A stretch of DNA of 64,000 nucleotides from an uncultured Gammaproteobacteria bacterium (lineage in GTDB: Bacteria > Pseudomonadota > Gammaproteobacteria > JAURND01): assembly GCA_963714975.1 (NCBI GenBank), contig CAVQQD010000001.1:192001-256000 (forward strand). Reading direction: 5' to 3'. The notes below the pieces were generated by a model, which was not told the origin of the DNA, ran no database searches, and worked only from the letters and a program-made list of their open reading frames with translations. Below are positions 13,036 to 45,036 of the stretch, piece by piece. The position numbers and the translations under genes are program-made. Numbering within the stretch: position 1 is the first letter of the stretch; each line of letters begins with the position of its first letter.

Positions 13036-14223
13036 TTAAGCGATTAATTCTCCCGCCCAAAGTTTTTTTAAAAAAATTCTCCAGGGCCAAATGTTTATTC
13101 CATCATGAGTCAAACGCTCGTTGCGATCCAGGCTAATCACAGTATAATTTTGGACTAATCCTTCCTCTTTGAGGGCTCTGATGCCCTTGAGGTGTTTATC
13201 AGTCACAAGATCAGTGCCTTTGATCTCAATTGCTAGCTTATTTCCAAGCACAATATCCACTTCGAAGTGTGAAGTAGAACGCCAATATTGTAATGGCAAG
13301 TCTACACCATGATAGGCGAGAAATGCTCGAAATTCTAAGACAATGAAATGCTCAAAAAGTCGACCAAAAAGTTCTGATTTAGATTCAACTCGGCCACGTC
13401 TGGTAAGAAAATTCACCACACCGATATCAAATAAATAATATTTTGCACGGGTAATGGCCTTGCGCTTTTTGCTGGCTAGAAATGGGGGAACACTAAATCC
13501 AATCAGCGTATCGTTTAAAATTTTGAAATAGGCTTCAACGGTGCGTACCGCCACTCCACAATCACTTGAAATATTGCTGTAATTAATTTCCTCGCCATTG
13601 CAAAGCGCCACCACTTCTAAGAAACGAACAAAACCGGATAAATTACGCGTAAGTGCCTCTGCTTTAATTTCTTCCTGGAGGTAAGTACCTACATAAGCGC
13701 TGAGATAATCACTGACCCCGTCTTGGCCATAAAATTCTGGCAAACCGGTGGTATTCAAATAGGTTAGGAGATCAAAATCGGGAATTTCTTGAAAGGTCAG
13801 TGGGAACAACGATGCTTGATAAGCACGACCTGCCAACAAATTTGCACCACCCTTGCGTAATTTTCTCGCGCTACTGCCGGTCAGTAAAAATTTTTGTTTC
13901 CGTTTTACAATTAACCGCTGCACTTCGTCTAACAAGAGAGGGAGTTTTTGAATTTCATCAATCACCACTAAAGTAGTTGATTTTGTTTCCTGACTGATTA
14001 AGGTAGGGTCTCGGACCAGCCGCTGAAAGACTGATGCATCAAGCAAGTCATAGACTTCAGCATCTGGAAGAGTCTCTGCGATCAGGGTACTTTTTCCAAC
14101 TCCGCGCGGACCGAAGAGAAAATGGCTTCGTTTGCTGAGCAGTTTTGTTAAATCTAAATATCTTGGGTACATTTTATCTCCATATTCAGCTTGTAAGTCG
14201 CTGAATATCATTATAATCGGCAA
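13036..14223 (-). CDS. AAA-family ATPase with DUF4143 domain (second, divergent copy)
   Basis: GPRGVGKS, VIDEIQK, LTGSSARKL, EVDIVL...AIEIK; true start probably internal (MYPRYL). Confidence 0.85.
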   Translation of the reverse strand: MPIIMIFSDLQAEYGDKMYPRYLDLTKLLSKRSHFLFGPRGVGKSTLIAETLPDAEVYDLLDASVFQRLVRDPTLISQETKSTTLVVIDEIQKLPLLLDEVQRLIVKRKQKFLLTGSSARKLRKGGANLLAGRAYQASLFPLTFQEIPDFDLLTYLNTTGLPEFYGQDGVSDYLSAYVGTYLQEEIKAEALTRNLSGFVRFLEVVALCNGEEINYSNISSDCGVAVRTVEAYFKILNDTLIGFSVPPFLASKKRKAITRAKYYLFDIGVVNFLTRRGRVESKSELFGRLFEHFIVLEFRAFLAYHGVDLPLQYWRSTSHFEVDIVLGNKLAIEIKGTDLVTDKHLKGIRALKEEGLVQNYTVISLDRNERLTHDGINIWPWRIFLKKLWAGELIA

Positions 14224-29516: not shown

Positions 29517-30518
29517 TTACCTCGGAATTAACTGCTGATCGCGTTGTACAAATACTCCCGGCAAATAGGCTGCAGAATGACTGGCCCACTGAATTAAATC
29601 ACATTCAATATCTCCACGGAAACAAAGTGGCAAGAACTGACTGGATGGTTGTGAGCCACCCCACTGGTAGGTCAGACTTAAGCCAATAATATTTTCATCA
29701 TGCGCCGGCAAAATGCTACTATGCAAATGACTGGCGGCTAGCTGCAGGCCCAGGCTACGCGAGGAGCTGTGGTACACGGGCCAATGAATATTAGCAGAAT
29801 ACTGCTGATAAGGTTTCCGATGGGCAACTGCCACTTCCAAGGTGATATCGTAGATAAATTTTTGCAAGAAAGTTGCATTTTGACCAAAGCCCGAACTATT
29901 TTTTGCTGATTCATGCTTGGTACTAAAGTGCACTTGATCGTAAGCAATCCCTAGATCAATTTGAGCTCCAGGCCACAGCCGCCAACGTGGGCCCAAATTA
30001 ATTCCTCCACCCATGCCGCCGGTCAAAAACCGCTGATTGATACTACCCTCCACGGTCGGAACATCGCTTAAACGACTACCGTTTGCCTGAAAATAATAGC
30101 CCCGGAAGATAAAAGCCTCTAAATATTTTTTAGTGGCTGCATATTCATACTGCAGCCCAAATTGATTCTGGCCGCTAAAATTCCCATCGGGGTAAGCAGC
30201 AAAATCGAAGGTATTCTCCTGGGCAAAATGTTCGACGGAGAGTTTAATTCGTTGGGTAGGTGTTAACACCCGCCCCCAAGTGAGCCCTAAACGAAATTCG
30301 TTACTGCCATAATCTAACAATAATACTGCAGCATCCCGCGGCGACAGGTAGTTTGCATACTCACTATGTGCTATAAATCCATAAACACTGCTGTCAATGC
30401 CTCCCAGTTCAATACGAGGTAGTAATTCTGCAGAACTTAAGTGCGGAAAAAGTAGGACAGCCAGGACTTGAAACCTTAGCTTTATAACGATTTTCATATG
30501 GTAACTACCAAAACCCAA
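29517..30518 (-). CDS. Hypothetical secreted/outer-membrane beta-barrel-like protein
   Basis: Signal peptide (LSSA-E); alternating amphipathic strands such as GLQYEY, LGIAYD, IGLSLTYQWG. Confidence 0.6.
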   Translation of the reverse strand: MGFGSYHMKIVIKLRFQVLAVLLFPHLSSAELLPRIELGGIDSSVYGFIAHSEYANYLSPRDAAVLLLDYGSNEFRLGLTWGRVLTPTQRIKLSVEHFAQENTFDFAAYPDGNFSGQNQFGLQYEYAATKKYLEAFIFRGYYFQANGSRLSDVPTVEGSINQRFLTGGMGGGINLGPRWRLWPGAQIDLGIAYDQVHFSTKHESAKNSSGFGQNATFLQKFIYDITLEVAVAHRKPYQQYSANIHWPVYHSSSRSLGLQLAASHLHSSILPAHDENIIGLSLTYQWGGSQPSSQFLPLCFRGDIECDLIQWASHSAAYLPGVFVQRDQQLIPR

Positions 30519-31073
30519 CGCCTATTTTTTGCTATTGAATTAACCCCTACTTTACGCCGAGCAATCCTGCGCGCCACCCGCCATTTTGCAACGCAAAAAT
30601 ATGGCCGTCCTATTCAATGGACACCTGAGGAAAAACTACATATTACTCTGCGATTTTTAGGGTCCGTGAATGAAGAAAAAATTCCTGATTGCCTAGACGC
30701 AGCAGCACAAAATCTCCGCGACATCAGTCCATTTGAGATTACCCTGGGAACTCTCGTGGTTTTACCCAAAAGGCACCCTCGAGTGATTGCACTTAGCGTG
30801 CCACTATCCGTGGAAATTGCTAGTTTATATTATCAGCTCGAAATAGCAATGACCAGATTAGAATTTTCTCCGGAAAATCGACCTTTTTTCCCTCATATTA
30901 CCTTGGGTCAGACTAAAAGTTTACTCACTCCGGCAGCTTGCTCAGCATTGCTTGCCGAAGACCTAACCCACCTCCACCATAACAAACAACGAGTGCGCTC
31001 TATTACTTTATTTCGTAGCGACAGTTCTGCCGCAGGCAGTATCTACACCTCACTGGGGCGCTTGTGCTTGTGA
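30498..31073 (+). CDS. thpR: RNA 2',3'-cyclic phosphodiesterase (2H family)
   Basis: RLFFAI, two HITL motifs (LHITLRFLG, PHITLG). Confidence 0.9.
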   Translation: MVTTKTQRLFFAIELTPTLRRAILRATRHFATQKYGRPIQWTPEEKLHITLRFLGSVNEEKIPDCLDAAAQNLRDISPFEITLGTLVVLPKRHPRVIALSVPLSVEIASLYYQLEIAMTRLEFSPENRPFFPHITLGQTKSLLTPAACSALLAEDLTHLHHNKQRVRSITLFRSDSSAAGSIYTSLGRLCL

Positions 31074-31935: not shown

Positions 31936-31991
31936 GAGCCTTTGTCGGACTGACAAGCTCTCTCTATTGGCCTAGTCCAGCCAAGGTCGCA

Positions 31992-32239
31992 CTGAGGGCA
32001 ACTCTGCCAGGGCCGGCCAAGTCGGTGAACATGCTAATTTTACTCCATAGGTGTGGGGTGGATAGCAGACGCAGCCGTAGGGGTGACGCGTGGGGAAACC
32101 ACGCCGCGCGCAGCGTGCGAGCACGGCGGGTGACCGCGCGGCAGGACCCCGAAGGCGTTGCGTCTGCCCCATCCCCCTCTCCCTAAGGAAATTTGGAGCT
32201 GTTCACCGACTTGGCCGGCCCTGGCAGAGTTGCCCTCAG
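31992..32239. repeat. GC-rich structured element: perfect 40-bp terminal inverted repeats enclosing a multibranch hairpin
   Basis: 31992-32031 is the exact reverse complement of 32200-32239; inner stems gcagacgca/tgcgtctgc, gcgtgg/ccacgc, cgtg/cacg. Confidence 0.88.
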
Positions 32240-33297
32240 CCGAGGCTGCCCTGCAGCTCTGTGATTTCTATCAGATAATTTGCAAATTCATCTAATTTTA
32301 ATTCGCGATCGACAGCTCCCATCGCCTTAGCAACAGCGGCGATCCCAAAAACCACAGACGATTCGGGATCCTGAATCAAGGTATGGCCATGCGCATTTTT
32401 TAACTCCATCAAACCTTGGGCGCCATCATTACCCATGCCTGTTAATAAAATACCGATAGCATTTGCACCACAGATTCTAGCAACGGACTTTAACATCACC
32501 GTAATTGAAGGGCAGAACCCACTTACTTGATCACCAGACACAAGTCTTGAGATAAGTTTATCTTGAACGCGATCAATTTCTAGATGAACTCCATCTGGAG
32601 CAACATAAATGCTGCCTTTTTCCAATTCTTGCAGATTAGTGGCGTCTTTAACTGGCAAAGCAGTACTCTCGTTTAGCCACTTGGTAAAGCCACTGATAAA
32701 ACCAAAACTCATATGCTGCACGACTATAATAGGGAGAGGAAAATTGGGTGGTAGCTTCGAAAAAATAGTTTTTAGCGCCAAGGGACCGCCTACTGAAGTA
32801 CCCACCGCAACTAACTCATAATTTCGAAATTGCGACTTAATAAAAGTTATTTTGCTAGGTTGTGGAACTTGAATCGTGGGAAATCCTCGCTTAACGACTT
32901 TAATTGTTGCCATGCTGCGTAGGGTATCTACAATGCGTTGACGAGTTTCCTCGAATGAAGCTGCCAAAATGTTACTCGGTTTGGCGAGGGCAGTTAATGC
33001 TCCCGCTTCGAGGATATGGAAAGTGGCTTTGACTGATTCATCACTGACAGTGGAACTAATTACCACGATAGGAGTTGGGTTTTGTTCTACGATAATACGA
33101 GTTGCTTCAAGCCCATTCATTATGGGCATTTCAATGTCCATAGTAATCAAGTCGGGTTTTAACTGCGCGGCAAGCTCAACCCCCTCTCTGCCATTTCGAG
33201 CATTACCAACCACAATCATATCCGATTCTGGCTCGATGATATGTTTAATTAATGCAGTTTCGGTATCTGAGTCATCCACAATGAGAATTCGTATCAT
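32236..33297 (-). CDS. cheB: Chemotaxis methylesterase CheB (REC + methylesterase)
   Basis: ILIVDDS, DLITMDIEMP; catalytic GTSVGGP, VQHM, LTGMGNDG. Confidence 0.93.
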   Translation of the reverse strand: MIRILIVDDSDTETALIKHIIEPESDMIVVGNARNGREGVELAAQLKPDLITMDIEMPIMNGLEATRIIVEQNPTPIVVISSTVSDESVKATFHILEAGALTALAKPSNILAASFEETRQRIVDTLRSMATIKVVKRGFPTIQVPQPSKITFIKSQFRNYELVAVGTSVGGPLALKTIFSKLPPNFPLPIIVVQHMSFGFISGFTKWLNESTALPVKDATNLQELEKGSIYVAPDGVHLEIDRVQDKLISRLVSGDQVSGFCPSITVMLKSVARICGANAIGILLTGMGNDGAQGLMELKNAHGHTLIQDPESSVVFGIAAVAKAMGAVDRELKLDEFANYLIEITELQGSLG

Positions 33298-33301
33298 AGG
33301 T

Positions 33302-35548
33302 TTATACCCGTTGCGCTTCAAGATGAAGTGCATTATAAATGAGATCAGCTGAATTCAATACAATAATAATTTGCCCATTACCTGATAAGGTGGCGCCTGC
33401 AATACAGGGCACATTAATTAACGGGAATTGTAACGGTTTTATCACAATTTCTCGTTCGCCGATAACTTCATCGACAAGAATGGCGACAGAGTCCCGCTCT
33501 TTTTTAATCACCACTACGGGCAGTTGTTCGTCGGACGAAAATTTTCTAGCTGGAAGCTGCAATATTTCAGACAGAGCGCATAAATAAATCGGATGATTGT
33601 CCATTAAAATACCTTGGCTACCTTGCATACTAATGACGTCGGCAATACCCAATAACAATACTCGTTCCACTGAGTTAGTAGACATAACAAATAGTTGGTG
33701 ATTGCTACTTACAATCAAACCTCGCTCAGTAGCAAGCGTGAGGGGAACACGCAAATGAAAAGTTGTGCCTTTCCCCAGCTCCGTGGTCACAGTCACTCGA
33801 CCTTTTAAACTAGCAAGATTTGCTTTAACTACGTCAAGACCTACACCACGACCAGAAATTTCCGAGACGATTTCTTTGGTGGAAAATCCAGGGCGAAAAA
33901 TTAATTCGATAATTTCATCTTTCGCCAGGGTCTCGAGATCGGCTTTGGCTAAAATAGTTTTTTTCAAGGCATTTTCAGCCACTTTATTAATATCAATTCC
34001 TCCTCCATCATCAGAAATATTAAAAATAATTTGGTTACCTTCCTCCAGCACCTCAATGCTGATCCGACCCATTTCTGGCTTGCCACTTTTTTTCCGCCAC
34101 TCAACGCTTTCGATACCGTGGTCAATAGCATTGCGAAGGATATGAATAATCGGATCTTTTAAACCCTCCAGGACCATTTTATCAATCTTGACATCATTAT
34201 CTTTGATTACCAGCTCTACAGATTTCCTCAGGCTTTGTGCTATATCACGGACTACCCGGGGTAAATTGCGCAGCAAAGTTGCCACAGGAATCAGGCGTAA
34301 CATCCGCACTTCATCTTGGAGTGCGCTGAATAACACGGTATATTCATTAATGTGTACCTGCATTTCTTTATGCATTTGACTAATGTTATGGGCAATATCC
34401 TCGAGGAGATAGGTATTTTCGCCGTTACGGCTATTGTTAAATTCTAAGCTATTTTTCCTCCAATTAAGCATAAATTGCTTCATTCTATTATTTAACTTAA
34501 CCAGCTGATTAAAATCATCGTCCATAGCAATTTTGTTAACTTGCATTTCTTCCATGTAAGCAGATACACGGTCTAAATTATCAACCGCTACGCGGATGGT
34601 CTCATATTCGCTGGTTTTAGCGGCAGGCGCCTGAGGTTCTGTAATTGGCACTTGTGGAAGAGGCGGTTGCTTTTTTTCCAACTTGCCAGCAGCAGCTTGT
34701 TGTAACCGTAATAAAAGATCTTCAAGATCAAATTCAGGGGGTTTATTTTCCAAAAAACACTGCATGGCCTCTCGCATACAGTCAACTGCCCATAAACAAA
34801 GATTAATCATATCAGCAGAAACTTCTATACTTTTTTTTTGGACTGCAGCAAACAACGTCTCAACATGATGCGCAATTTCGCCGATGTTGGTCAGCCCAAT
34901 ACCGCGCGCAGACCCTTTTACGTTGTGTGCCGCCCTAAAAATAGCTTCAATCGTTTTAGTAGAATCCATTCCTTGTTTTTCATTTTGCTCGAATTCAAGC
35001 AAGGCATTGGTAATTAATTCTAGCCGCTCTTCCAACTCTGCCTTAAAGATTTCCATCACTTGTTGTTGAAATTCGTCAGGCTTAGGCTTGGTTTCCGTTG
35101 GTTTATGGGGTGTTTCTGGCGTAGATGGGAGTTTAAGTCCCGGAGCAGTTTGCCCCTGTTCCAGCTGTTTTAATAACTTTTTCAAGTCAAAAAGCAAGGG
35201 TTTTTCGTCAATGAAACATTGCATGGCTTCGCGCATACGGTCGACTGCTTGCAAACAAAGCGTGATAATTTCAGGAGAAATAGCCAGGGTCTGGGTTTGG
35301 ATGGATGAAAAAAGAGTTTCGACATGGTGGGCAATCTCTCCAACATCTGCAATACCAATTCCATGAGCTGCGCCTTTAATATTATGGGCTGCGCGAAAAA
35401 TTTCATTGATAGTTGGCGAAAGATCTACACCCTCAGGACTGCCCCTTTCTAATGCAAGTAGCCCATCAGTAATAGTTTGCAGTCTCTCTTCAAGCTCGGC
35501 TTTGAATGTGACTACTATTTGTTTTAAAAATTCAGCATTTGACCCCAT
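33302..35548 (-). CDS. cheA: CheA-like histidine kinase with two Hpt domains, no C-terminal receiver
   Basis: IFRAAHNIKG and IFRAAHNVKG, HILRNAIDHGIE, SGRGVGLDVV, C-terminal CheW domain. Confidence 0.93.
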   Translation of the reverse strand: MGSNAEFLKQIVVTFKAELEERLQTITDGLLALERGSPEGVDLSPTINEIFRAAHNIKGAAHGIGIADVGEIAHHVETLFSSIQTQTLAISPEIITLCLQAVDRMREAMQCFIDEKPLLFDLKKLLKQLEQGQTAPGLKLPSTPETPHKPTETKPKPDEFQQQVMEIFKAELEERLELITNALLEFEQNEKQGMDSTKTIEAIFRAAHNVKGSARGIGLTNIGEIAHHVETLFAAVQKKSIEVSADMINLCLWAVDCMREAMQCFLENKPPEFDLEDLLLRLQQAAAGKLEKKQPPLPQVPITEPQAPAAKTSEYETIRVAVDNLDRVSAYMEEMQVNKIAMDDDFNQLVKLNNRMKQFMLNWRKNSLEFNNSRNGENTYLLEDIAHNISQMHKEMQVHINEYTVLFSALQDEVRMLRLIPVATLLRNLPRVVRDIAQSLRKSVELVIKDNDVKIDKMVLEGLKDPIIHILRNAIDHGIESVEWRKKSGKPEMGRISIEVLEEGNQIIFNISDDGGGIDINKVAENALKKTILAKADLETLAKDEIIELIFRPGFSTKEIVSEISGRGVGLDVVKANLASLKGRVTVTTELGKGTTFHLRVPLTLATERGLIVSSNHQLFVMSTNSVERVLLLGIADVISMQGSQGILMDNHPIYLCALSEILQLPARKFSSDEQLPVVVIKKERDSVAILVDEVIGEREIVIKPLQFPLINVPCIAGATLSGNGQIIIVLNSADLIYNALHLEAQRV

Positions 35549-35559
35549 TGCCGTACGTC

Positions 35560-37275
35560 CTAAGCATGGCCTCTCAATCCTTCGGCAATTTCAGCTAACT
35601 GATTGATAGCAGTGCTGGTTTGTTTGACACTATTGACGAATGCGGCGGTCACTTGGTTGATTTCACTCATACCTACAGTAATTTGTTCAATACCGATCGC
35701 TTCCTGGCGAATTGCAGCTTCAATATGCTGACTGGCAATGGAAGCTTCGTGGGTCATCTCACTTAAACTTTTAATGACTTCTCCGGCTTTTTCAATTAGT
35801 TTACTGCCATTATCAACTCCTTTAGTGCCTTCTTCAGTGACCAAAACTGCTTCTTCTGCGGCATGGCGGATATCTTCTAAAATTTTCTGCACTTGGGTTG
35901 TGGATTGTTCTGATTGTTCGGCTAAATTTTTTACTTCAATCGCGACCACAGCAAACCCCCTACCTGCTTCGCCTGCTTTTGCTGCTTCAATGGATGCATT
36001 CAGTGCCAACATTTTAGATTGTTGCGCTAAGGCATTAACAACAGCAGTAATTTCTCCTACTTGTTGAGTTTGATTACTTAAGTCAAGAATGGTTTGGGCA
36101 ATAATCTGTACCTTATCACGTAACTCCCGCATTCCCTGAATACTTTGTTCCACAGATTCCATGCCAAGCTTAGCTTTTTCGCGAGTTTGTCTTGCCATCT
36201 CACCCAGGGTCTGTGCTTTTTCACTGGTTTGTTTTGAGCTCTTATCGATTTGCTCTAATGACGCGGTAATTTCATTAATAGACGAAGCCTGCTCTGTAAT
36301 ACCCGTGGATTGTTCATTAGCTGATGACCTTACTTCCTTTAAGGTTTCAATCATGCTATTACTTGTCTCCACGATTCTGACATTTACTGTTTTCATCCTC
36401 TCTTCATTCCGCTTGATTTCATCTTCATTTTCTCGAATAGCGACTTGCATCACGCCTAAAGAATGCAATAAATCGCCAGTCTCATCATTAGAGATCGTGG
36501 TAATTTCAAGATTACGCTCACCTGCAGCAATTCTTTGGGCGATATTGATAGCGTTTTGTAAGGGAGGAACTATTTTCGTAGCGGTAACCAGTGCAATAGC
36601 AATGGAAGCAAGGATTACAATGACTAATATGAGGATTTCTAGTAATTCTAAGACGGTCATACTGTTTGCTATTGTGACGCTACCCTGTTGTAATTTTTGA
36701 TATTGAATATCAAGTAATCCGCCACTGGGATTATTGGCAGGACCTTCTATGATATTCATGATCTTATTAAATAACGGCAATGTTTCAGCACCTAAAATCT
36801 CGGTTGCGGCCGCTGGAGTGCTGGCGTTTTCTACCTTCTCTTGTGCGATTTTAAATGCAAGGAGCAAAGGCTTGATATTTTGCCATCCTGAAACAAAATT
36901 TCGCGACCAATAAGCGGATAAATTATCTAAAATTAGTCGCAGATGATCAATGGCGACCGAGGCAGCAACTCGTCCGGATTTAAACTTAGGATCGTGAAAT
37001 AAAATCCAGCTCCGATTCATTGAGGAAGATTCCCACAAGTTATTTTCTAAGCTGATCATATTATTGTAAGTGGGTAAGTCTGATGTTATGAACTTATTAA
37101 CTGAATTTTTAGTGTGGGCAATGATAAAAAAAGTGATTATAGCGGCGACTATTAAAATAATGATGATGGTAGTATAACCCAGGAGTAAACGTTTACGGAT
37201 ACCTAGACGGGCGAAGTGAGGCTCATCTACCCAATGCCGTGCGTTATTTTGCGGAAATTTGCTTATTCCATTCAT
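35560..37275 (-). CDS. Methyl-accepting chemotaxis protein (2 TM, HAMP)
   Basis: QSKMLALNASIEAAKAGEAGRGFAVVA; HAMP DETGDLLHSL. Confidence 0.93.
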   Translation of the reverse strand: MNGISKFPQNNARHWVDEPHFARLGIRKRLLLGYTTIIIILIVAAIITFFIIAHTKNSVNKFITSDLPTYNNMISLENNLWESSSMNRSWILFHDPKFKSGRVAASVAIDHLRLILDNLSAYWSRNFVSGWQNIKPLLLAFKIAQEKVENASTPAAATEILGAETLPLFNKIMNIIEGPANNPSGGLLDIQYQKLQQGSVTIANSMTVLELLEILILVIVILASIAIALVTATKIVPPLQNAINIAQRIAAGERNLEITTISNDETGDLLHSLGVMQVAIRENEDEIKRNEERMKTVNVRIVETSNSMIETLKEVRSSANEQSTGITEQASSINEITASLEQIDKSSKQTSEKAQTLGEMARQTREKAKLGMESVEQSIQGMRELRDKVQIIAQTILDLSNQTQQVGEITAVVNALAQQSKMLALNASIEAAKAGEAGRGFAVVAIEVKNLAEQSEQSTTQVQKILEDIRHAAEEAVLVTEEGTKGVDNGSKLIEKAGEVIKSLSEMTHEASIASQHIEAAIRQEAIGIEQITVGMSEINQVTAAFVNSVKQTSTAINQLAEIAEGLRGHA

Positions 37276-37318
37276 TCAATATCCCTCCTGGAAACTTATT
37301 TAGACTACACCTGCGAAA

Positions 37319-37891
37319 TTAAGCTTGCAATAGCTGAGGATCTTTCATGATCGCTTCAATATTAATAATAGCAATAACTCCGCGGTGAAGTCCAATAACA
37401 TACTCAGTTTTAATCGCGCTAAGCGAGGGAAGGCCAGTGGCTAAGTTGACTGGCTCATAGGTATCACTGTCTTCGATGTTGTCTGCCAATATCCCCAAGG
37501 TAATGCCTTTGGTTGTAACAACTATTACTTGTGCTTTAGCCGTTTTTGTTTCCACACTCTGCAAAGTAAAGAACTGTTTAAGGTCTAAAATAGCAATCAA
37601 AGCGCCATGACGATTAATGATACCTTTGATAAACTGGCGTGAACGTGGCAAGGGAGTAATAAGTACATTACGCATTACCTCCTTAACAAATTCATAGGGA
37701 ATCCCATACGTCTCATTTTCGCCTAATTTAAACCGCACATACGCAACACCTGCCACGTGTTTTACCGTCTCAACTTTCAGCATTGCTAATTGCTTAGCGC
37801 GCTCATGCAAAATTTGCAGTTCTGTCTCATTTCGTGGCATGAGGTTGCTGGCATGTAGCTTGTGATGTCTCCTAGGGGAATGCATGATCAA
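37319..37891 (-). CDS. cheW: CheW-family coupling protein (WspD-like position)
   Basis: ETYGIPYEFVKEV, GIINRHGALIAILDL, GILADNI. Confidence 0.85.
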   Translation of the reverse strand: MIMHSPRRHHKLHASNLMPRNETELQILHERAKQLAMLKVETVKHVAGVAYVRFKLGENETYGIPYEFVKEVMRNVLITPLPRSRQFIKGIINRHGALIAILDLKQFFTLQSVETKTAKAQVIVVTTKGITLGILADNIEDSDTYEPVNLATGLPSLSAIKTEYVIGLHRGVIAIINIEAIMKDPQLLQA

Positions 37892-37915
37892 TACTCCTTA
37901 ACCATGGGCTCACCT

Positions 37916-38794
37916 TCATGGTTTTATAAAATATATTCCTTGATTATCTATATATTGCAGACCGGAATCTGCAACATTAATTGGATCAGAGGCACCTAAT
38001 AATAGATACCCGCCCTCCACCAGGCAGGCACTAATTTTTTTCATAATGCTAATAATACGTTCTTTATCAAAATAGATCAGCACATTTCGACATAAAATCA
38101 AATCTTGGGCATTAGTTCCGTTTAAAATAGCGGGGTATTTATTTGCATTTAAGTTAAGATAAGAAAACTTAACCAGGTTGCGGATTCTGGACGAAAGAAT
38201 ATACCCATGATTCTCTTTAGCAAAATATTTATTGAGATACTGCGGCGTTATGCTACGCATTGACCATTTCGTGTATCGACCAGAAGTTGCTTGCGCTAAT
38301 GCCATGGTATTGATATCTGTGCCCAGTAGCTGCAATGACCAAGCTTCAGGAGTGGTGAGGATTTCACAAAGTAAGATAGCGATAGTATATATTTCTTCAC
38401 CCGTTGCACAACCTGCACTCCATATTCGGATCGTTTTATTTTTTTCCCTGGTCTTTTTTGCGATAATTTCCGGAATAATGATATTTTCCAGCAGTCGTCC
38501 TTGCTGCTTATCACGAAAAAAATAGGTTTCGCCCACAGTAATGCCACCAACTAAATAATCAAATAGTGGAGAATTATCTGCTGCTTGCCGTAATTGTTCG
38601 AGATATTCTGTGGGTTGGCAATGAAATTTTTCACAGGCCTCCAGAATCGTTTTAAACAAATCATTGGTTTGATGCAGATGAATAACGATGCCTAAACGCA
38701 CTTGGATAAAGTTTAAAAAATCCGACTCGCAGGCTATCACCTTTTCGACAAGCTCTCTCGAATGTTGCTTGTAGATGCTAGCATCAATTTTCAT
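37916..38794 (-). CDS. cheR: Chemotaxis methyltransferase CheR (no TPR tail)
   Basis: TVGETYFFRD, IWSAGCATGEE, DLILCRNVLIYF. Confidence 0.93.
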   Translation of the reverse strand: MKIDASIYKQHSRELVEKVIACESDFLNFIQVRLGIVIHLHQTNDLFKTILEACEKFHCQPTEYLEQLRQAADNSPLFDYLVGGITVGETYFFRDKQQGRLLENIIIPEIIAKKTREKNKTIRIWSAGCATGEEIYTIAILLCEILTTPEAWSLQLLGTDINTMALAQATSGRYTKWSMRSITPQYLNKYFAKENHGYILSSRIRNLVKFSYLNLNANKYPAILNGTNAQDLILCRNVLIYFDKERIISIMKKISACLVEGGYLLLGASDPINVADSGLQYIDNQGIYFIKP

Positions 38795-39279
38795 ACAGCC
38801 CGTCGTCCCGGCTTCGAGCTAAGCCGAAAATCTAAAATACGTTCCATATTGATTAGTAATGAGACACCTGTATCTAAGGCAATAGCCGCAATAAAGAGGG
38901 AACTTGCGTTGTTAAATTCCTCACGCATTTGCATGATTTCCTCTTCAACATCAGCCAGCCCAAGGACTTCATCAATGATTAGACCTGCTTGAGCACCGTC
39001 AGTACAAAGTAAAATAGGGGTGGTTAATCGGTAGGGCTTATTGGGTGTAAATCCCAGTCTCATAGCTAGATCAATCACGGGGATGCTTTTGCCCGTAAGA
39101 TTCATTAATCCAGCCAAATAGGCAGGGCTATTAGGAACAGTTTCTAAAAAAACCAGTGGCAAAATTTTCTCAATATATTGAACATCCATACAGAAACGCA
39201 CATTTTGCAGCAAAAAATGCAATACTTGCAATTTGTATTTGATTGGTAAATTTGGCATACGATAAGTTCCCAAATGCAC
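38791..39279 (-). CDS. cheW: CheW-family coupling protein (WspB-like position)
   Basis: VPNSPAYLAGLMNLTGKSIPVIDL, GLIIDEV. Confidence 0.87.
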   Translation of the reverse strand: MHLGTYRMPNLPIKYKLQVLHFLLQNVRFCMDVQYIEKILPLVFLETVPNSPAYLAGLMNLTGKSIPVIDLAMRLGFTPNKPYRLTTPILLCTDGAQAGLIIDEVLGLADVEEEIMQMREEFNNASSLFIAAIALDTGVSLLINMERILDFRLSSKPGRRAV

Positions 39280-39384
39280 GCTCGGTATTTGTGTATTATA
39301 GTTAAGTATGCGCTAAAAGCGAATCAATGCTTAGACTGCGCCCGTGGCCTGAATCCACGGGGCTTTTCAAAATAGGATTCAACC

Positions 39385-40734
39385 ATGCAGAAAAATACTC
39401 CGCCAGATGAACTCTACCAATTTGCCAATGAAAGGATCGAAGAACGAAAATCAGCATTAATTGGTTGGAAAATATTAATAGTGGATGATAAAAAAGCTAT
39501 CCATGAGGTAATTCAATTAGCCCTAAAGGATTTTATTTTTGCAGATAAAATTTTGATTTTTTTACATGCCTATTCAGGACAGGAAGCAAGACAAATTCTT
39601 AATGAAAATTCTAACATTGCCATAATACTGTTGGATGTAACCATGGAACAGGAAGATGCAGGATTACAGATAGTTAAATTTACCCGGGAAGAATTAAAAA
39701 ATTTTTCTACACGAATAATCTTATGCACGGGTCAATTGGATTATGCTCTCGAAACGAAAATAGTCATAGACTATGATGTCAATGAGTATATAGCAAACAC
39801 ACAATTATCTTCAAATCGACTATTTACTGCTATATTAGCCAATTTACGTGCTTATCGTAATATACAACGACTTTCAGAGCAGCAACGCCAATTAGAAAAA
39901 ATTAATGAAGCAGCGTCACGCTTTATTCCAGCGGGATTTTTGCAGCTATTGAACAAACAGAGCATTATTGAACTAGCGCTTGATGATCATATTGAGCAAG
40001 AAATGACAATATTATTTTTGGACATTCGTTCATTTACCACGATCAGTGAGTTTTTATTGCCATTAGAAACCATCAAATTTATTAATAATTTTGTATCATA
40101 CCTAGAGCCTGTCATTGTGGCAAATAAGGGTTTTGTGGATAAATACATTGGTGATGGCTTAATGGCCATATTTGCTACTAAAGCTGATGATGCGGTAAAC
40201 GCAGCAATTGCCATGCTTAAGTCACTAGGAGATTATAATTACACTCGTTTAACCAAGCATCAAATACCTATTAAAATTGGGGTTGGAATTAATACGGGGA
40301 AAACATGTGTTGGAGTAGTAGGTTTCGAGGATCGGATGGATTGCACGGTTATTAGCACCGCAGTTAATGTTGCCTCGCGGATAGAAGATTTAACTAAAAA
40401 ATTGGGGACTCATCTACTGATTAGTTCCGATACTTTTTTGTCCCTTGAAAACTCCAAACAATTTCATTTTCGCTTCATTGGGAAAATGACAGTTAAGGGA
40501 AAACACGAGCCTGTGGGTATCTACGAAATTTTTGATATGGATCCAGAATCTATATTGCAATTTAAAGAACAAACTAAAGAAGAATTCGAAGCAGCGATTA
40601 GCTTATACATGACACGAGAATTCGAAGCAGCGAACAAAATTTTTAGCAAAATTGTTGCTCATAATTCCCACGATGCGCCAGCTAAATATTTTTTAGCAAA
40701 AACCGAGGAATTGCTAAGGTACTCACATAAATAG
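39385..40734 (+). CDS. Receiver-domain class III adenylate cyclase with short TPR-like tail
   Basis: REC (ILIVDD, ILLDVTME); catalytic LFLDIRSFT, VDKYIGDG, CTVISTAVNVASRIE, VKGK. Confidence 0.9.
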   Translation: MQKNTPPDELYQFANERIEERKSALIGWKILIVDDKKAIHEVIQLALKDFIFADKILIFLHAYSGQEARQILNENSNIAIILLDVTMEQEDAGLQIVKFTREELKNFSTRIILCTGQLDYALETKIVIDYDVNEYIANTQLSSNRLFTAILANLRAYRNIQRLSEQQRQLEKINEAASRFIPAGFLQLLNKQSIIELALDDHIEQEMTILFLDIRSFTTISEFLLPLETIKFINNFVSYLEPVIVANKGFVDKYIGDGLMAIFATKADDAVNAAIAMLKSLGDYNYTRLTKHQIPIKIGVGINTGKTCVGVVGFEDRMDCTVISTAVNVASRIEDLTKKLGTHLLISSDTFLSLENSKQFHFRFIGKMTVKGKHEPVGIYEIFDMDPESILQFKEQTKEEFEAAISLYMTREFEAANKIFSKIVAHNSHDAPAKYFLAKTEELLRYSHK

Positions 40735-40742
40735 GAGCACTG

Positions 40743-42050
40743 TCAGTGCGAGGAGCGAGGAAAATTTATAATAAATGTCGTTCCCTTCCCTAAAGTGCTT
40801 TCACATTTTATGCTTCCATTTAAAACCTGGGAAATCTGATTGTAGACAATATGTAACCCTAACCCAGTGCATCCGGCTTCCCGCTTGGTAGTGAAAAAAG
40901 GCTCAAAGATTTTTTGCAGATTTTGTGATGCAATACCTTTGCCGTTATCAGAATATTTAAGCTCTACTCCCCCATTGGTACTTGAAGCTTCAATATTAAG
41001 CGTGCCTGATTGACCTGGATCAAAGCCATGGATGATAGAATTCATAACCATTACCGTAATTGCCCGAAATATTACTCCAGGATAACCATAAACCAGCAAA
41101 TCTTCAGGGCATTCGATCATGGTTTTTAGGGCGGTATCTTTTAAAGCAGGGGCTAAACTAAAAATGATTTCCTCTAAATATTCTTTCAATGAAAACTGAC
41201 GACTTTGTTCTGTTACTTGGTCGACAGACACTTGCTTGAAATTGACAATGAGATCGACAGCTCTATTCAGGTTAATTTTTAATAACTCAATAGCTTCTTG
41301 GATTTTTGCAAAAAAATCAGTTAATTCCGATTTTTTTAAAAGATTTTGGGTGAAGGAACGATAAATAGGCTCCAAGGTTTCATTTAATTGGGTAACCGCT
41401 AAGACACTAATGCCTAAGGGAGTATTGACCTCGTGCGCAACACCAGCAACAAGGTTACCTAAAGAAGCCATTTTTTCTGATTCAATTAATTGCTTTTGGG
41501 TGCTTTTCAATGAATCAATGGTGGCCACAAGTTCATCATTAGCTTTGCGCAATTCTTCCGTTCTTAACTCGACTCTTTGCTCTAACTCAAGATTTAACTT
41601 TTTTAGCTCTTGCTGCGTTTTTTGCAAATCTATTTTCTTTTCTTGCAATTCGAAATAGTCACGGCTATTGCGGATGATATATCGCACGCGATGACCCAGT
41701 AGATCCCAGTTGATGGGCTTGGTAATGAAGTCAGTTGCTTTTACATTAAAAGCTCTATCAATTGAACTTACATCTTCGGAAGCCGTAGTAATTACTATAG
41801 GAACATGCTCACCACCAGGTAATTCTCGCAACTTGGCACAGGCAGTAAAACCATCCATGCCAGCCATAACCAGGTCAAGCAAGATTATGTCTGGCTTTGT
41901 TTCAGCAAATACTGTTAGCGCACTGGCGCCATCTTCTGCTTCATAAACGACAAATCCGGCAGATTCAAGAGCCGAACGCATCAGCAGCCGCATAGTGCGG
42001 CTATCATCAACCACCAGAGCAATATCTTTATCAAGGTTTTGATTTGACAT
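40743..42050 (-). CDS. Cytoplasmic hybrid REC-histidine kinase
   Basis: REC (VVDDS, LLD, TKP), coiled coil, H-box HEVNTPLG, DNGKG, FEPFFTTK, TGLGL. Confidence 0.92.
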   Translation of the reverse strand: MSNQNLDKDIALVVDDSRTMRLLMRSALESAGFVVYEAEDGASALTVFAETKPDIILLDLVMAGMDGFTACAKLRELPGGEHVPIVITTASEDVSSIDRAFNVKATDFITKPINWDLLGHRVRYIIRNSRDYFELQEKKIDLQKTQQELKKLNLELEQRVELRTEELRKANDELVATIDSLKSTQKQLIESEKMASLGNLVAGVAHEVNTPLGISVLAVTQLNETLEPIYRSFTQNLLKKSELTDFFAKIQEAIELLKINLNRAVDLIVNFKQVSVDQVTEQSRQFSLKEYLEEIIFSLAPALKDTALKTMIECPEDLLVYGYPGVIFRAITVMVMNSIIHGFDPGQSGTLNIEASSTNGGVELKYSDNGKGIASQNLQKIFEPFFTTKREAGCTGLGLHIVYNQISQVLNGSIKCESTLGKGTTFIINFPRSSH

Positions 42051-42070
42051 AATTGCAACGCTCTCACACC

Positions 42071-42192
42071 GTCGTCCCGCTCCCGCGACTTGATCGCGGG
42101 ATTGTCCGCGGGATCTAGGTAAAGGCCAATAGAAACTTCATTTCTGGAGTCCCGCGGACAATCCCGCGATCAAGTCGCGGGAGCGGGACGAC
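42071..42192. repeat. RPE-like palindrome with perfect 43-bp arms, each containing an internal palindrome
   Basis: 42071-42113 is the exact reverse complement of 42150-42192; nested tcccgcga-cttga-tcgcggga. Confidence 0.9.
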
Positions 42193-42312
42193 AAAGCTAA
42201 TTAAGCATAATCGAGTTTACCCGTTTGTCAAAGTCTTATTGACAAAATAGGAGGATAAGATTAGGGTTACTGGCATTAGTAGAGGAAGGAACCATGCTAA
42301 AAGGAACGCAAA

Positions 42313-44124
42313 ATGGATGATATGGAATTACTTTCTTCAGTAAAAGCTTGTGATCTGTTTGCTCATTTAACCGATGAAAAAATTTTTTCTATCCTACCTT
42401 TTTTTAAAAAAATCAGCCTCCTCGAAAGTGAAGTTTTATTTCAACAAGGCACAGAACCCGACGGTTTTTATGTGCTTGTTTCTGGTAAGCTAGTAAGCTC
42501 TTTAGAAACTCCCACAGCGGGAAAGAAAATTATTGGTATGGCTTACCCTGGTGAAACCATAGGCGAATTAGGGGTGATTTCCGGAGAACCGCGCAGCTTG
42601 ACGGTTTCAGCATTGACCGACTCTGAGCTATGGAAACTTTCCGCTGAAGCTTTTTTTCGGATTACCACAGAAAATCCAGATATTTCATCGCAAATAATGC
42701 AGGTTATCACCAAAAGATCCCTGAAAACTCTTAAATTAATTGCTAGTACTAATAAAGCAAAATTCCTAGTATTTTTCAAAGGAAACGAACTGATACCTAT
42801 AGAACAGTTAAAGGAATTTATTCAAACGCAATCCGCTGAAAAGAAAATTGAATTTTGGGATGAAGAATCTTTATCGGCAGAGAAAGTAAGCCGAGTTATT
42901 GAAAGTTCAAGCTATGATGACTATATCATCGTTACTTTAATTACCAATATTAATGCGTTGGTTTTTCAATTAATAGAAAAACAATCCCTCTACTTTTACC
43001 TAATAATACAAAACAACTTGCCAATTACCTTAACTACTCAAATTCAACAAATTTTAAATTATGCCCGAAAAAATAACATTAGAGTAGAACTCATAATATT
43101 GCGAGACAATTTTCAACCAACAGAGCTAAGCACTGAAAAATGGTTGAATCTAGCAGATTTTTGGTTTTATCATAACTTGAACATCCATGACACTACTAGC
43201 TTACAACGTTTTTGGCGCTTTATCCTTGGAAAACCCAACGCCTTAGTTCTTGGTGGCGGAGGAGTAAGAGGATATTGCCATTTTGGCGTCATCAAAGCGT
43301 TGCTAGAACATAATATTCCTATTGATATTATTGGCGGAACTAGTGTTGGCGCTATTGTGGGAGGCCTTTATGCTTTTACCTTGGATTACGCCAAAGCATT
43401 AGAGATTTTTAGCCAAGGAACCGACCTTATCGCAAGCACAGTCTCATTTAAAAATATTACTTTACCTTTAGTGTCTATTTTTAGCGGCAATCCTTTAAAC
43501 GATTTTAACCGAGAAATATTTGGTTCAACCCGAATTGAAAATTTATCCTTGCCATTTTTTTGTGTCTCTGCAAATCTTTCTTCTAAAAGTGAGTATATGC
43601 ATAAATCAGGTTTGCTTTGGCAGGCTGTGCGCAGTAGCTCCTCCATTCCTGGTTTATGGCCACCCGTGCTGCTTAACGGCGATGTACATTTCGATGGTGG
43701 CTTGTTGAATCAACTGCCAGTGGATGCCATGCGTGCATTGCTAGGCCCCAATGCAAAAATTATTGCCTCTCAAGCTTCCGTCACTAAACAGGATTATATC
43801 TATTACAATTTCCCTTCCACAATTAGTTTAAAAGAGGCGTTGCTATATAAGCTAGGATTTAAAAAAAATCAGTATAACTACCCTCCTTTCTTAGAAATTT
43901 TTTTATCAGCCATATTTTTGGGAGCTTCACATGTCGAAGAAAAAAATAGTGCTTTGTGCGATATTCATATTAAGCCCGATCTTACCGATTTTGGTAGATT
44001 TAAGTTAAATCCTGGGCAGGCAGAGCAATTAATTAATATTGGCTACGAATACACAAACAAGTTTTTGCAGAATAAAGAGGAATTATTTAGCAAAAACCAC
44101 CAGGGTTTGTTTACAATTCGCTAG
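42313..44124 (+). CDS. Cyclic-nucleotide-binding patatin-like phospholipase (NTE-like)
   Basis: CNBD with GETIGELGVISGEPRS; patatin GGGGVRG, GTSVG, DGG all intact. Confidence 0.92.
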   Translation: MDDMELLSSVKACDLFAHLTDEKIFSILPFFKKISLLESEVLFQQGTEPDGFYVLVSGKLVSSLETPTAGKKIIGMAYPGETIGELGVISGEPRSLTVSALTDSELWKLSAEAFFRITTENPDISSQIMQVITKRSLKTLKLIASTNKAKFLVFFKGNELIPIEQLKEFIQTQSAEKKIEFWDEESLSAEKVSRVIESSSYDDYIIVTLITNINALVFQLIEKQSLYFYLIIQNNLPITLTTQIQQILNYARKNNIRVELIILRDNFQPTELSTEKWLNLADFWFYHNLNIHDTTSLQRFWRFILGKPNALVLGGGGVRGYCHFGVIKALLEHNIPIDIIGGTSVGAIVGGLYAFTLDYAKALEIFSQGTDLIASTVSFKNITLPLVSIFSGNPLNDFNREIFGSTRIENLSLPFFCVSANLSSKSEYMHKSGLLWQAVRSSSSIPGLWPPVLLNGDVHFDGGLLNQLPVDAMRALLGPNAKIIASQASVTKQDYIYYNFPSTISLKEALLYKLGFKKNQYNYPPFLEIFLSAIFLGASHVEEKNSALCDIHIKPDLTDFGRFKLNPGQAEQLINIGYEYTNKFLQNKEELFSKNHQGLFTIR

Positions 44125-44221
44125 GCTTGAGCAGAAATCATTGAATTCTGAGCACCGTAGCGCAGTTTACGTGGGTGTAAATGAGCAACGGAGCACAAGA
44201 AATCAATGATTTATGCCAAGC
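44125..44221. repeat. Imperfect ~97-bp palindromic element between convergent genes
   Basis: gcttg..aaatcattga / tcaatgattt..caagc arms, central tttac-gtgggt-gtaaa. Confidence 0.7.
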
Positions 44222-44243
44222 ATAGTAGAATTGTAAATAAACC

Positions 44244-45011
44244 CTAAAATGTAAACTCCTGACCACGCCTAACAAATCCCAAAAAACCATAAGCTTTGGC
44301 ATCTGGTAAATCAGCGGCATCATAGTGATATAACCACATTTTAGATTTTATGTCCGAATCTAAGGTGATTAATTGGTCAAAATGAGCATGAAGCCCACTG
44401 GCAGGCGTGGTTAATTCGCAATCTTGAAAAATAATATCCACAGTACGGTAAAAATCAATTAGCTGCTTAGGAGCAAGTTGGGTATCCGTCGTGATAAAAA
44501 TTTTAGTCTGTTTAATATTAAAAATTAACCCATGGCTGGATATTAAAGAATAACCGGACATGGCATGAATGGTTTGTACAGTTTGAAAACTAATATTCTG
44601 CCATTGGAAGATGCCGTTTTTAGATATTGCATGCAGATTAAAAAAACTGCTTAATGAGGCTTGTTCTATCTGCAATGTACTCAAGCCTGCTGAAAGGGCT
44701 TTTTCCCATAAGTCATTAACTAATTCAGAGCTAATATATAAATTGGGTTTTTTGCAGTTAACATCAAACTTAGTGCTAAATGCTAGCCATTCGAGACCGC
44801 CGATATGATCCGCGTGTAAATGACTAATATAAACATCAGTAATATCGCGGTAAGAATAATGCAATCTAGCTAAGGCATGTCGGGCATCAGAGCCGCAGTC
44901 AATCAGCAATTTCTCCGGTATGTTTTCATCCAAAAGTAACATATTGGACTGATAGTTATCATTGAGCGTGAAGGCTGAGCCTGAACCAATGAAGATGAGT
45001 TTCATGTCCAA
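44244..45011 (-). CDS. MBL-fold metallohydrolase, Apyc1-like cyclic nucleotide phosphodiesterase
   Basis: GSGSAF, LLIDCG, SHLHADHIGGLE, LWEKALSAGL, FQDCE...GLHA, WLYHY parallel the Apyc1 motifs as recalled. Confidence 0.78.
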   Translation of the reverse strand: MDMKLIFIGSGSAFTLNDNYQSNMLLLDENIPEKLLIDCGSDARHALARLHYSYRDITDVYISHLHADHIGGLEWLAFSTKFDVNCKKPNLYISSELVNDLWEKALSAGLSTLQIEQASLSSFFNLHAISKNGIFQWQNISFQTVQTIHAMSGYSLISSHGLIFNIKQTKIFITTDTQLAPKQLIDFYRTVDIIFQDCELTTPASGLHAHFDQLITLDSDIKSKMWLYHYDAADLPDAKAYGFLGFVRRGQEFTF

Positions 45012-45036
45012 TCCTATAGTTAGTATCGCCGGTGAC

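Follow-up and report, generated by a model that had tools for sequence, protein, structure and literature searches.

A cluster of ten contiguous genes was analyzed at positions 32236-45011 of a 64,000-nucleotide stretch of DNA (the window) from an uncultured gammaproteobacterium (assembly GCA_963714975.1, contig CAVQQD010000001.1, positions 192,001 to 256,000). The cluster encodes a chemosensory array, a class III cyclase fused to a receiver (REC) domain (REC-cyclase), a REC-histidine kinase (REC-kinase), a patatin with a cyclic nucleotide-binding domain (CNBD-patatin) and a metallo-beta-lactamase (MBL) hydrolase of the Apyc1 family. We propose, with a probability of roughly 55%, that these genes form a non-motility chemosensory pathway with cyclic AMP (cAMP) as output, which would be read by the patatin acting as a lipase and reset by the hydrolase. 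Gene content, motifs, the conserved linkage of part of the cluster and the uniqueness of its genes within the genome were observed directly. The genome holding the window (G000) comprises 2.56 Mb in three contigs and is 93.75% complete.

According to this proposal, the single membrane-bound methyl-accepting chemotaxis protein (MCP), two CheW proteins and CheA would form an array that is adapted by CheR and CheB through methylation. Phosphorylated CheA would pass its phosphate to the CheY-like N-terminal receiver of the REC-kinase. This receiver would gate the kinase, which in turn would act on the atypical receiver that precedes a class IIIb adenylate cyclase domain. In this way cAMP synthesis would follow the state of the receptor. 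Binding of cAMP to the CNBD of the soluble patatin, which resembles neuropathy target esterase (NTE), would activate a lipase that deacylates phospholipids of the cell's own membrane (the putative substrate) and so remodels it. The Apyc1-family metallo-hydrolase would degrade cAMP and reset the signal. We infer all phosphotransfer steps, the product of the cyclase, lipase activation and the substrate of the hydrolase. A more far-reaching version is possible, at somewhat below even odds: the array alone would control cAMP in a Legionella-like bacterium that lacks flagella, and together with the relay, the cAMP-gated lipase and the Apyc1-type reset it would make up a self-contained sense-make-read-erase circuit.

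Domains of the open reading frames (ORFs) were assigned with Pfam profiles and motifs were read from the translations. The cluster is composed as follows.

32236..33333, minus strand: cheB; Pfam Response_reg (76.3 bits) and CheB_methylest (183.1 bits); NCBIfam CheB subfamily NF001965 (322.5 bits, cut-off 293)
33302..35548, minus strand: cheA with two tandem Hpt (P1) domains and no fused receiver; Pfam Hpt (two stretches), HATPase_c and CheW
35560..37275, minus strand: mcp, chemoreceptor; Pfam MCPsignal (124.5 bits)
37319..37891, minus strand: cheW, second coupling protein; Pfam CheW (69.1 bits)
37916..38794, minus strand: cheR methyltransferase without TPR extension; Pfam CheR (163.2 bits)
38791..39279, minus strand: cheW, first coupling protein, leading the che operon; Pfam CheW (77.6 bits)
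39280..39384: divergent intergenic region of 105 bp between che operon and cyclase gene, from the ORF coordinates
39385..40734, plus strand: REC-class III (IIIb-like) putative adenylate cyclase; Pfam Guanylate_cyc (77 bits) and Response_reg (33.3 bits)
40743..42050, minus strand: REC-kinase; Pfam Response_reg (95.7 bits) and HATPase_c (71.9 bits)
42051..42312: divergent region of 262 bp between the REC-kinase and patatin genes, with a palindromic repeat of ~130 bp inside, from the sequence
42313..44124, plus strand: CNBD-patatin (NTE-like putative lipase); Pfam cNMP_binding (65.8 bits) and Patatin (115.9 bits)
44244..45011, minus strand: Apyc1-family MBL hydrolase; PF23023 Anti-Pycsar_Apyc1 (92.5 bits, cut-off 50)

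A first-pass annotation made from the sequence had described ten contiguous genes with these domains. This was borne out: all ORFs were recovered at these coordinates and Pfam matched every domain. For none of the output proteins did NCBIfam return an equivalog-level name.

The che genes and the cyclase gene are linked in other genomes as well. One genome per species was scanned with a REC-cyclase alignment, which returned 80 loci; the order to which G000 belongs is represented by only nine species genomes in the collection used. A genome of the sister genus (G008, 67% complete) carries cheW-cheR-cheW-mcp-cheA-cheB, the REC-cyclase and the REC-kinase genes on contig C9 (L024 7295-16890) in a single row on a single strand, and the encoded proteins are 41-62% identical to those of the window. 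The cheB gene of G008 is present as two overlapping ORFs (receiver, L024 13135-13578; methylesterase, 13550-14209), either through a frameshift or through an assembly error. The same che row was found at locus L061 of an uncultured gammaproteobacterial metagenome-assembled genome (G406), with the REC-cyclase directly after it and no REC-kinase. Judged from gene order, the conserved unit is cheW-cheR-cheW-mcp-cheA-cheB plus REC-cyclase. As a control, 80 metagenomic cheB loci were inspected among the matches listed, all at 43% identity or below. Only one of these 80 had a cyclase-domain match, which was weak and 8 kb off, and in none was a patatin or MBL homologue found near cheB. A CheA search at E <= 1e-120, with two candidates per genome scored, recovered G000 only (1 of 400 genomes of the class); this shows just that close orthologues are rare in the sample, the cut-off being too strict for distant che systems.

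A similar order appears in Legionella longbeachae. The L. longbeachae genes llo3298 to llo3303 are given as cheW (llo3298), cheR (llo3299), cheW (llo3300), an unnamed tag, cheA (llo3302) and 'cheY' (llo3303), and Llo3304 is counted among the class III cyclases (PMC2824747). The consecutive locus tags, which are the only basis for adjacency in this case, suggest that L. longbeachae shares the che-cyclase order. The species has no flagella, and its che operon has been called paradoxical (PMC2824747, PMC5655016). A review of the Legionella flagellar regulon from 2017 states that the role of the che operon needs experiments (PMC5655016), and neither source connects the Llo3304 cyclase with the che genes (PMC2824747, PMC5655016). 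For L. longbeachae and related species, no function of the che operon has been known since 2010, and we propose that its output is the cyclase encoded after cheB. The arrangement may explain why che genes are retained in flagella-less Legionella. Should the more far-reaching version given above hold, it would be the first case of a chemosensory system wired directly, in biochemical terms, to cAMP, and the che genes of non-flagellated Legionella would have their long-sought function. In the literature searched, which covered main texts and few subscription journals, no description of che-to-cyclase wiring was found.

The cluster is the sole che cluster of G000, with MCP, CheA, CheW, CheR and CheB encoded in one operon, and its three CheW-domain genes account for all three matches to this domain in the genome. 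Hydropathy windows at about residues 28-56 and 200-239 of the MCP indicate two membrane segments, which enclose a periplasmic part of ~145 residues without a family match. The two Hpt copies of CheA are 52.6% identical to each other and both retain the His of AAHN[IV]KG. The L061 CheA has an Arg in place of this His in its first Hpt copy, and the G008 CheA has a single Hpt copy. Since no FliG was found in G000, we read the genome, on sequence grounds, as one without a flagellar motor. Matches to the PilT family stayed under the family cut-off. The cluster holds no single-domain receiver. Elsewhere in G000 there are further receivers: the genome has 42 receiver-domain matches in total, about 20 of them in small ORFs of 119-187 residues, several of near-equal length, which look like an expanded family of stand-alone receivers.

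This gene content places the cluster next to known systems, and it is most likely a non-motility chemosensory pathway of known kind, with cAMP output as the new variant. The Wsp system of Pseudomonas (WspA-F and WspR; PMC5907407) likewise has one MCP, two CheW, CheR, CheA and CheB and serves a non-motility function, and its REC-GGDEF gene follows cheB just as the REC-cyclase gene does in G008 and L061. The cluster differs from Wsp in several respects. Its output is a putative class III adenylate cyclase and not a diguanylate cyclase, CheA lacks the fused receiver that WspE has and CheR lacks the TPR, which sets the cluster outside Wsp proper. Moreover, a REC-kinase is interposed, and the output genes of G000 are inverted with respect to the operon. 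Known non-motility chemosensory outputs are cyclic di-GMP (c-di-GMP; Wsp) and developmental kinases (Che3). Receiver-coupled cAMP would be a third type, and would give a clean system in which to study how an array signal is turned into a second messenger. The first-pass annotation knew of no described system with this combination. Each part is of a known kind, and in the literature searched we found no account of the whole: a chemosensory array with a putative cAMP output that is receiver-coupled and relay-driven, and with its sole reader and its eraser in the same genome.

Which protein receives the signal from CheA was narrowed down by typing the receivers. The receivers of the G000 and G008 REC-kinases are 51-58% identical to the receiver fused to the L061 cyclase (51% for G000). 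The REC-kinase receiver reaches only 24-25 bits against the receiver of G000's own cyclase. Likewise, the L061 cyclase receiver scores 130-143 bits against the REC-kinase receivers, compared to 30 bits against the G000 cyclase receiver. The latter shares 43% identity with its counterpart in G008 and 48-52% with receivers from REC-cyclases of cyanobacteria. A kinase is encoded by the adjoining gene in 12 of the 80 REC-cyclase loci (L030-L039, L041 and L042), and over 220-284 residues the cores of these kinases share 42-48% identity with that of the REC-kinase. Within G000, the best paralogue of this core has at most 28% identity over more than 190 residues (at most 56 bits). Several kinases of the 12 loci are Pkinase-AAA_16-GAF-kinase giants; the REC-kinase has neither a GAF domain nor a Pfam HisKA match. 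We read the CheY-like type as the che-cognate receiver, which appears to sit on the cyclase in L061 and on the kinase in G000 and G008, and the REC-kinase as the putative cognate partner of the cyclase's atypical receiver. The first-pass annotation had CheA signal to either the REC-cyclase or the REC-kinase. Receiver typing and kinase-core homology favor a refined version, namely a serial relay from CheA to the REC-kinase to the REC-cyclase.

Both steps of such a relay have precedents. In the Che3 cascade of Rhodospirillum centenum (CheA3 to CheS3 to CheY3), a REC-kinase is encoded with the che genes and CheA3 phosphorylates a receiver of this REC-kinase, CheS3 (PMC3868531). The cluster differs in that the final regulator would be a cyclase instead of a single-domain CheY, and in that CheA is not a hybrid. 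CyaC of Spirulina and Anabaena (receiver-GAF-kinase-receiver-class IIIb cyclase) follows the same kinase-receiver-cyclase logic as proposed for the cluster: its intrinsic kinase activates the cyclase via the proximal receiver (PMC3009899). Like the REC-kinase, CyaC has an N-terminal receiver ahead of its kinase. The cluster spreads this logic over two genes without GAF domains, and its kinase core belongs to a different subfamily: Pfam gives no HisKA match for it, and HisKA is present in the fused forms. Nearer relatives than CyaC are the split pairs of a Pkinase-AAA_16-GAF-kinase and a REC-cyclase (L030-L041). A further arrangement with this kinase type was seen at L134 4510-10603 (G027), where the genes for an Apyc1-like hydrolase and a REC-cyclase lie together with those for a REC-DUF3369-HD-GYP protein and for a kinase whose core is of the REC-kinase type (182 bits). 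One kinase would then have under it both an enzyme of cAMP and a probable enzyme of c-di-GMP.

A different wiring of the same proteins has to be weighed at this point. CheA could phosphorylate the cyclase receiver directly, and the REC-kinase could serve as a phosphate sink, a phosphatase or a second input that brings another signal to the same cyclase. Such a branch is what L061 speaks for: it has che genes and a REC-cyclase and no REC-kinase, direct transfer would be needed there, and a direct route from CheA to a cyclase hence occurs in nature. The two intact Hpt domains of the G000 CheA, which could serve different receivers, leave room for branched wiring, and the first-pass annotation had left both CheA targets open. 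Yet the L061 cyclase receiver is, by the scores given above, an orthologue of the REC-kinase receiver and not of the G000 cyclase receiver, and the subfamily of the latter is paired with this kinase type in the 12 loci. We therefore regard branched wiring as unlikely, with a modest chance of being right, and prefer the serial relay.

The cyclase domain has intact motifs in the translation (two metal Asp, Lys253, Asn328 and Arg332). Class IIIb cyclases have a Lys/Thr pair, which Lys253 and the Thr seven residues before Asn328 presumably represent. Among solved structures, the nearest to the domain are adenylate cyclases (bPAC, P. aeruginosa CyaB 3R5G, Cya1 and CyaC). Together, the REC-cyclase fits a class IIIb adenylate cyclase, and cAMP is its likely product. 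It is the sole PF00211 match in G000, and no class I cyclase was found in this genome. Its receiver keeps the DD, D and T positions and lacks the conserved Lys; the Lys site reads YIAN in the G000 cyclase compared to YKEK/YKTK in G008 and L030.

The Pil-Chp system of P. aeruginosa reportedly sets cAMP through the class IIIb cyclase CyaB, a finding ascribed to Fulcher and colleagues (Fulcher et al., 2010). Its CheA has more than one Hpt, a feature shared with the G000 CheA, and CyaB (3R5G) is one of the near relatives of the cyclase domain named above. Pil-Chp acts on CyaB indirectly, in a manner tied to type IV pili, and CyaB itself lacks a receiver. In the cluster, by contrast, the cyclase is fused to a receiver and its gene lies with the che genes. 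No PilT-family match over the cut-off was found in G000.

The presumed reader of cAMP was examined for its motifs. The intact patatin catalytic motifs described in the first-pass annotation are indeed all present in the translation (GGGxRG, GTSVG and DGG). The CNBD contains GELG...PRS, with the phosphate-binding Arg kept. Only two PF00027 matches exist in G000, namely the patatin and a 145-residue protein on contig C3, which has a Tyr at the site of the phosphate-binding Arg. The patatin is the sole evident cAMP receiver in G000. No membrane-like segment or signal peptide was seen, in keeping with a soluble protein. An N-terminal CNBD with the Arg and a patatin domain with the GxSxG and DG[AG] dyad give it an NTE/PNPLA6-like layout. 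The NTE P-loop-like domain PF24179 was not reported for the G000 and G008 patatins; four orthologues (L014-L017) match it with 28.9-41.8 bits. No biochemical study of a bacterial CNBD-patatin was found in the literature searched, which covered few subscription journals, and a cAMP-controlled bacterial NTE-like lipase would bear on the role of the CNBDs in NTE/PNPLA6.

Of 401 genomes sampled from the class, 15 have an orthologue of the CNBD-patatin. Among the 17 loci outside G000, two have an adjacent dCache-cyclase (G006 and G003, of the same family) and another has a cyclase 3.4 kb off. Near one of the orthologues, at L014 11838-12464 (G028), lies a gene for a DOT1-like histone methyltransferase; such genes are eukaryote-like and typical of intracellular bacteria.

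Patatin effectors are known from Legionella, and the CNBD-patatin could likewise be an exported effector that senses the cAMP of a host cell and leaves the bacterium's own membrane untouched. A weak NCBIfam match to the Dot/Icm effector VpdC (40.7 bits, cut-off 1000) points in this direction. The presence of orthologues in 15 of the 401 genomes and their position beside bacterial sensor cyclases in two relatives argue for a role inside the bacterium, and the protein shows neither a signal peptide nor a membrane-like segment, secretion signals as such not having been tested. Export is highly improbable in our view, and an intracellular reader of cAMP is preferred.

The hydrolase belongs to the Apyc1 family, as its motifs had suggested in the first-pass annotation. 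HLHADH is intact, PF23023 passes its cut-off (92.5 versus 50 bits), and the Apyc1 structures 7U2R, 7U2S and 7T28 are matched end to end at E about 1e-25. Residues 3-244 of 7U2R align to residues 3-254 of the hydrolase (E 4.6e-25), with HLHADH aligned to HIHGDH and the later metal-ligand columns His, Asp, His and His conserved. No other Apyc1-like match was found in G000. Bacterial Apyc1 homologues cleave cAMP in vitro (10.1101/2024.08.21.608784, PMC9117128), and the hydrolase is a probable cAMP phosphodiesterase. More than 80% of Apyc1 homologues are chromosomal and have been proposed to be housekeeping enzymes (10.1101/2024.08.21.608784); the chromosomal ones are described as 'occasionally adjacent to a cyclase' (10.1101/2024.08.21.608784, PMC9117128). 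The G000 hydrolase resembles the latter in family (PF23023; 7U2R, 7U2S and 7T28), in its intact HxHxDH and in its chromosomal location. It differs in lying beside the genome's sole cyclase and sole canonical CNBD protein.

Orthologues of the hydrolase were found in 21 of 400 genomes of the class sample. There are 21 orthologue places outside G000, of which we examined 20; the one omitted is a weak match that lies at the end of a contig. Pfam identified a class III cyclase close by in 10/20 of these loci, which come from other families, a CNBD gene in 6/20 and either of the two in 12/20. For three loci ORFs beyond the two nearest neighbors were included, as flagged beforehand; when only the directly adjacent ORF was counted, a cyclase or CNBD gene was present in 10/20. 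This association (12/20) is far above the published 'occasionally', and the published supplementary figures may already show such neighborhoods. It fits the published view of chromosomal Apyc1 homologues as housekeeping cyclic nucleotide phosphodiesterases. It would also supply physiological partners for these homologues, including three trios of cyclase, CNBD and hydrolase genes (L116 in G291, L118 in G109 and L122 in G062).

Several side observations concern the hydrolase loci. The trios are compact and consist of a dCache-cyclase, a small stand-alone CNBD protein (163-178 aa) and the Apyc1-like hydrolase, with a glutamate dehydrogenase gene between them in L122. They recur as a putative make-sense-erase set that lacks an effector domain. 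The G008 orthologue (60% identical, contig C19) is encoded by a gene that overlaps by 4 bases with the end of a gene for a Pkinase-AAA_16-GAF-cyclase of 1786 residues. Such giants lie directly upstream of Apyc1-like hydrolases at L111 10445-15805 (G008, 1786 aa) and L115 8807-13897 (G234, 1697 aa). In cyanobacteria (L030) the same N-terminal architecture ends in a histidine kinase and is followed by a REC-cyclase gene. At L129 6617-7831 (G061) an Apyc1-like hydrolase adjoins a patatin that lacks a CNBD and carries DUF3734.

The cyclase, the CNBD-patatin and the hydrolase, each the sole one of its kind, all lie within 5.6 kb of the 2.56 Mb genome. The chance that three singletons co-locate in this way is of the order of 1e-5 by a post hoc estimate. 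Nevertheless, the patatin and the hydrolase could be housekeeping neighbors that came to lie beside the che and cyclase genes after rearrangements, possibly mediated by repeats, with no shared circuit. Support for this comes from G008, where the three parts lie on separate contigs, from the patatin orthologues, which are mostly solitary (14/17 loci without a nearby cyclase), and from the palindromic repeat elements in the intergenic regions of the cluster. The hydrolase gene, moreover, shares its strand with an OmpA/CmpA-like lipoprotein gene, begins 25 bases past the end of that gene (window 45012-45036) and may be co-transcribed with it and not with the signaling genes. Against mere co-location stand the single cyclase and single canonical CNBD of the genome, which leave no other evident cyclic nucleotide source for the lipase, the low chance of three singletons within 5.6 kb, and the hydrolase orthologues beside cyclase or CNBD genes in 12/20 loci. 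Co-location without a shared circuit thus appears distinctly unlikely compared to a cAMP pathway that includes lipase and hydrolase.

A number of observations weigh against the pathway as proposed, and most concern its output side. The first-pass annotation had linked the che operon to the cyclase, patatin and hydrolase genes. This holds elsewhere for the cyclase (G008, L061 and, by locus tags, L. longbeachae), and it does not hold for patatin and hydrolase, so that the ten genes do not form a conserved module: G008 has the patatin on contig C6, the hydrolase on C19 and the che genes on C9. The search for the ten-gene module in other genomes was likewise unsuccessful, with no patatin or MBL homologue in the 80 REC-cyclase loci and no che or MBL genes at the 17 CNBD-patatin loci outside G000. 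G406, the genome with L061, has the hydrolase, and a search at E <= 1e-10 found no CNBD-patatin in it. The lipase can thus not serve as the output of che-cyclase systems in general. Within the cluster, the five genes at 39385-45011 alternate in strand and are separate transcription units. Scans for promoters (34 versus 37.0 +/- 6.7) and terminators (13 versus 13.5 +/- 4.4) did no better than in shuffled sequences. The missing Lys of the G000 cyclase receiver means that its switch could be impaired, and the ~20 small stand-alone receiver ORFs elsewhere in G000 make a separate CheY-like target possible. Finally, as G000 is 93.75% complete, 'only one' means one found, and 'only cyclase' covers classes I and III, the CYTH type (class IV) not having been searched.

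The first-pass annotation had also considered defense-like lysis of the Pycsar kind, and this part was not upheld. A Pycsar/CBASS-like abortive infection system would make a cyclic nucleotide upon phage infection, the patatin would lyse the cell and the hydrolase would hold the system off. PADLOC models for PycC match the cyclase domain (best 69.9 bits), effector models reach 40.2 bits on the CNBD and 31.7 bits on the patatin domain, and the hydrolase is in the Apyc1 family. These PADLOC matches are domain-level only, however, with the effector matches ranging from 24-40 bits. The cyclase is receiver-controlled, resembles class IIIb adenylate cyclases and is the genome's only class III cyclase. 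Its gene is separated from the patatin gene by the opposite-strand REC-kinase gene; there is no two-gene cyclase-effector operon as in Pycsar, and the two genes cannot share a transcript. The putative effector domain is a patatin and not a transmembrane or TIR killing domain. No phage or mobile genes flank the cluster, as judged by Pfam on the window ORFs, and the mostly chromosomal, presumably housekeeping nature of Apyc1 homologues (10.1101/2024.08.21.608784) also speaks against a defense role. We regard an abortive infection system as scarcely credible here and retain the chemosensory cAMP pathway as the preferred explanation.

The cluster had been described as visibly richer in AT than the flanking core genes. 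This is correct relative to the flanks (GC content 0.397 compared to 0.464 in the rest of the window) and only modestly so relative to the whole genome. Windows of the same size have a mean GC content of 0.430 (standard deviation 0.028), and 11% are as low as or lower than the cluster. Horizontal transfer was considered on the basis of this AT-richness and rejected as weakly founded, the cluster being just ~1.2 standard deviations under the genome mean. The left flank holds sucCD, a LigT-like esterase and DUF2807 genes, and the right flank holds OmpA-like, csp, racemase and phosphoribosyltransferase genes (Pfam).

GC-rich palindromic repeat elements fill the intergenic stretches 31936-32235 and 42051-42312. 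A blastn search of the genome returned 29 and 23 pieces of at least 30 bases for these two stretches, respectively. The inversions by which G000 and G008 differ may have come about through these repeats. To the left of the cluster, an ORF of 333 residues without a Pfam match (29517-30518) overlaps by 21 bases with the LigT-like 2H phosphoesterase gene (30498-31073) on the opposite strand. The substrates of 2H-family enzymes are 2',3'-cyclic phosphates.

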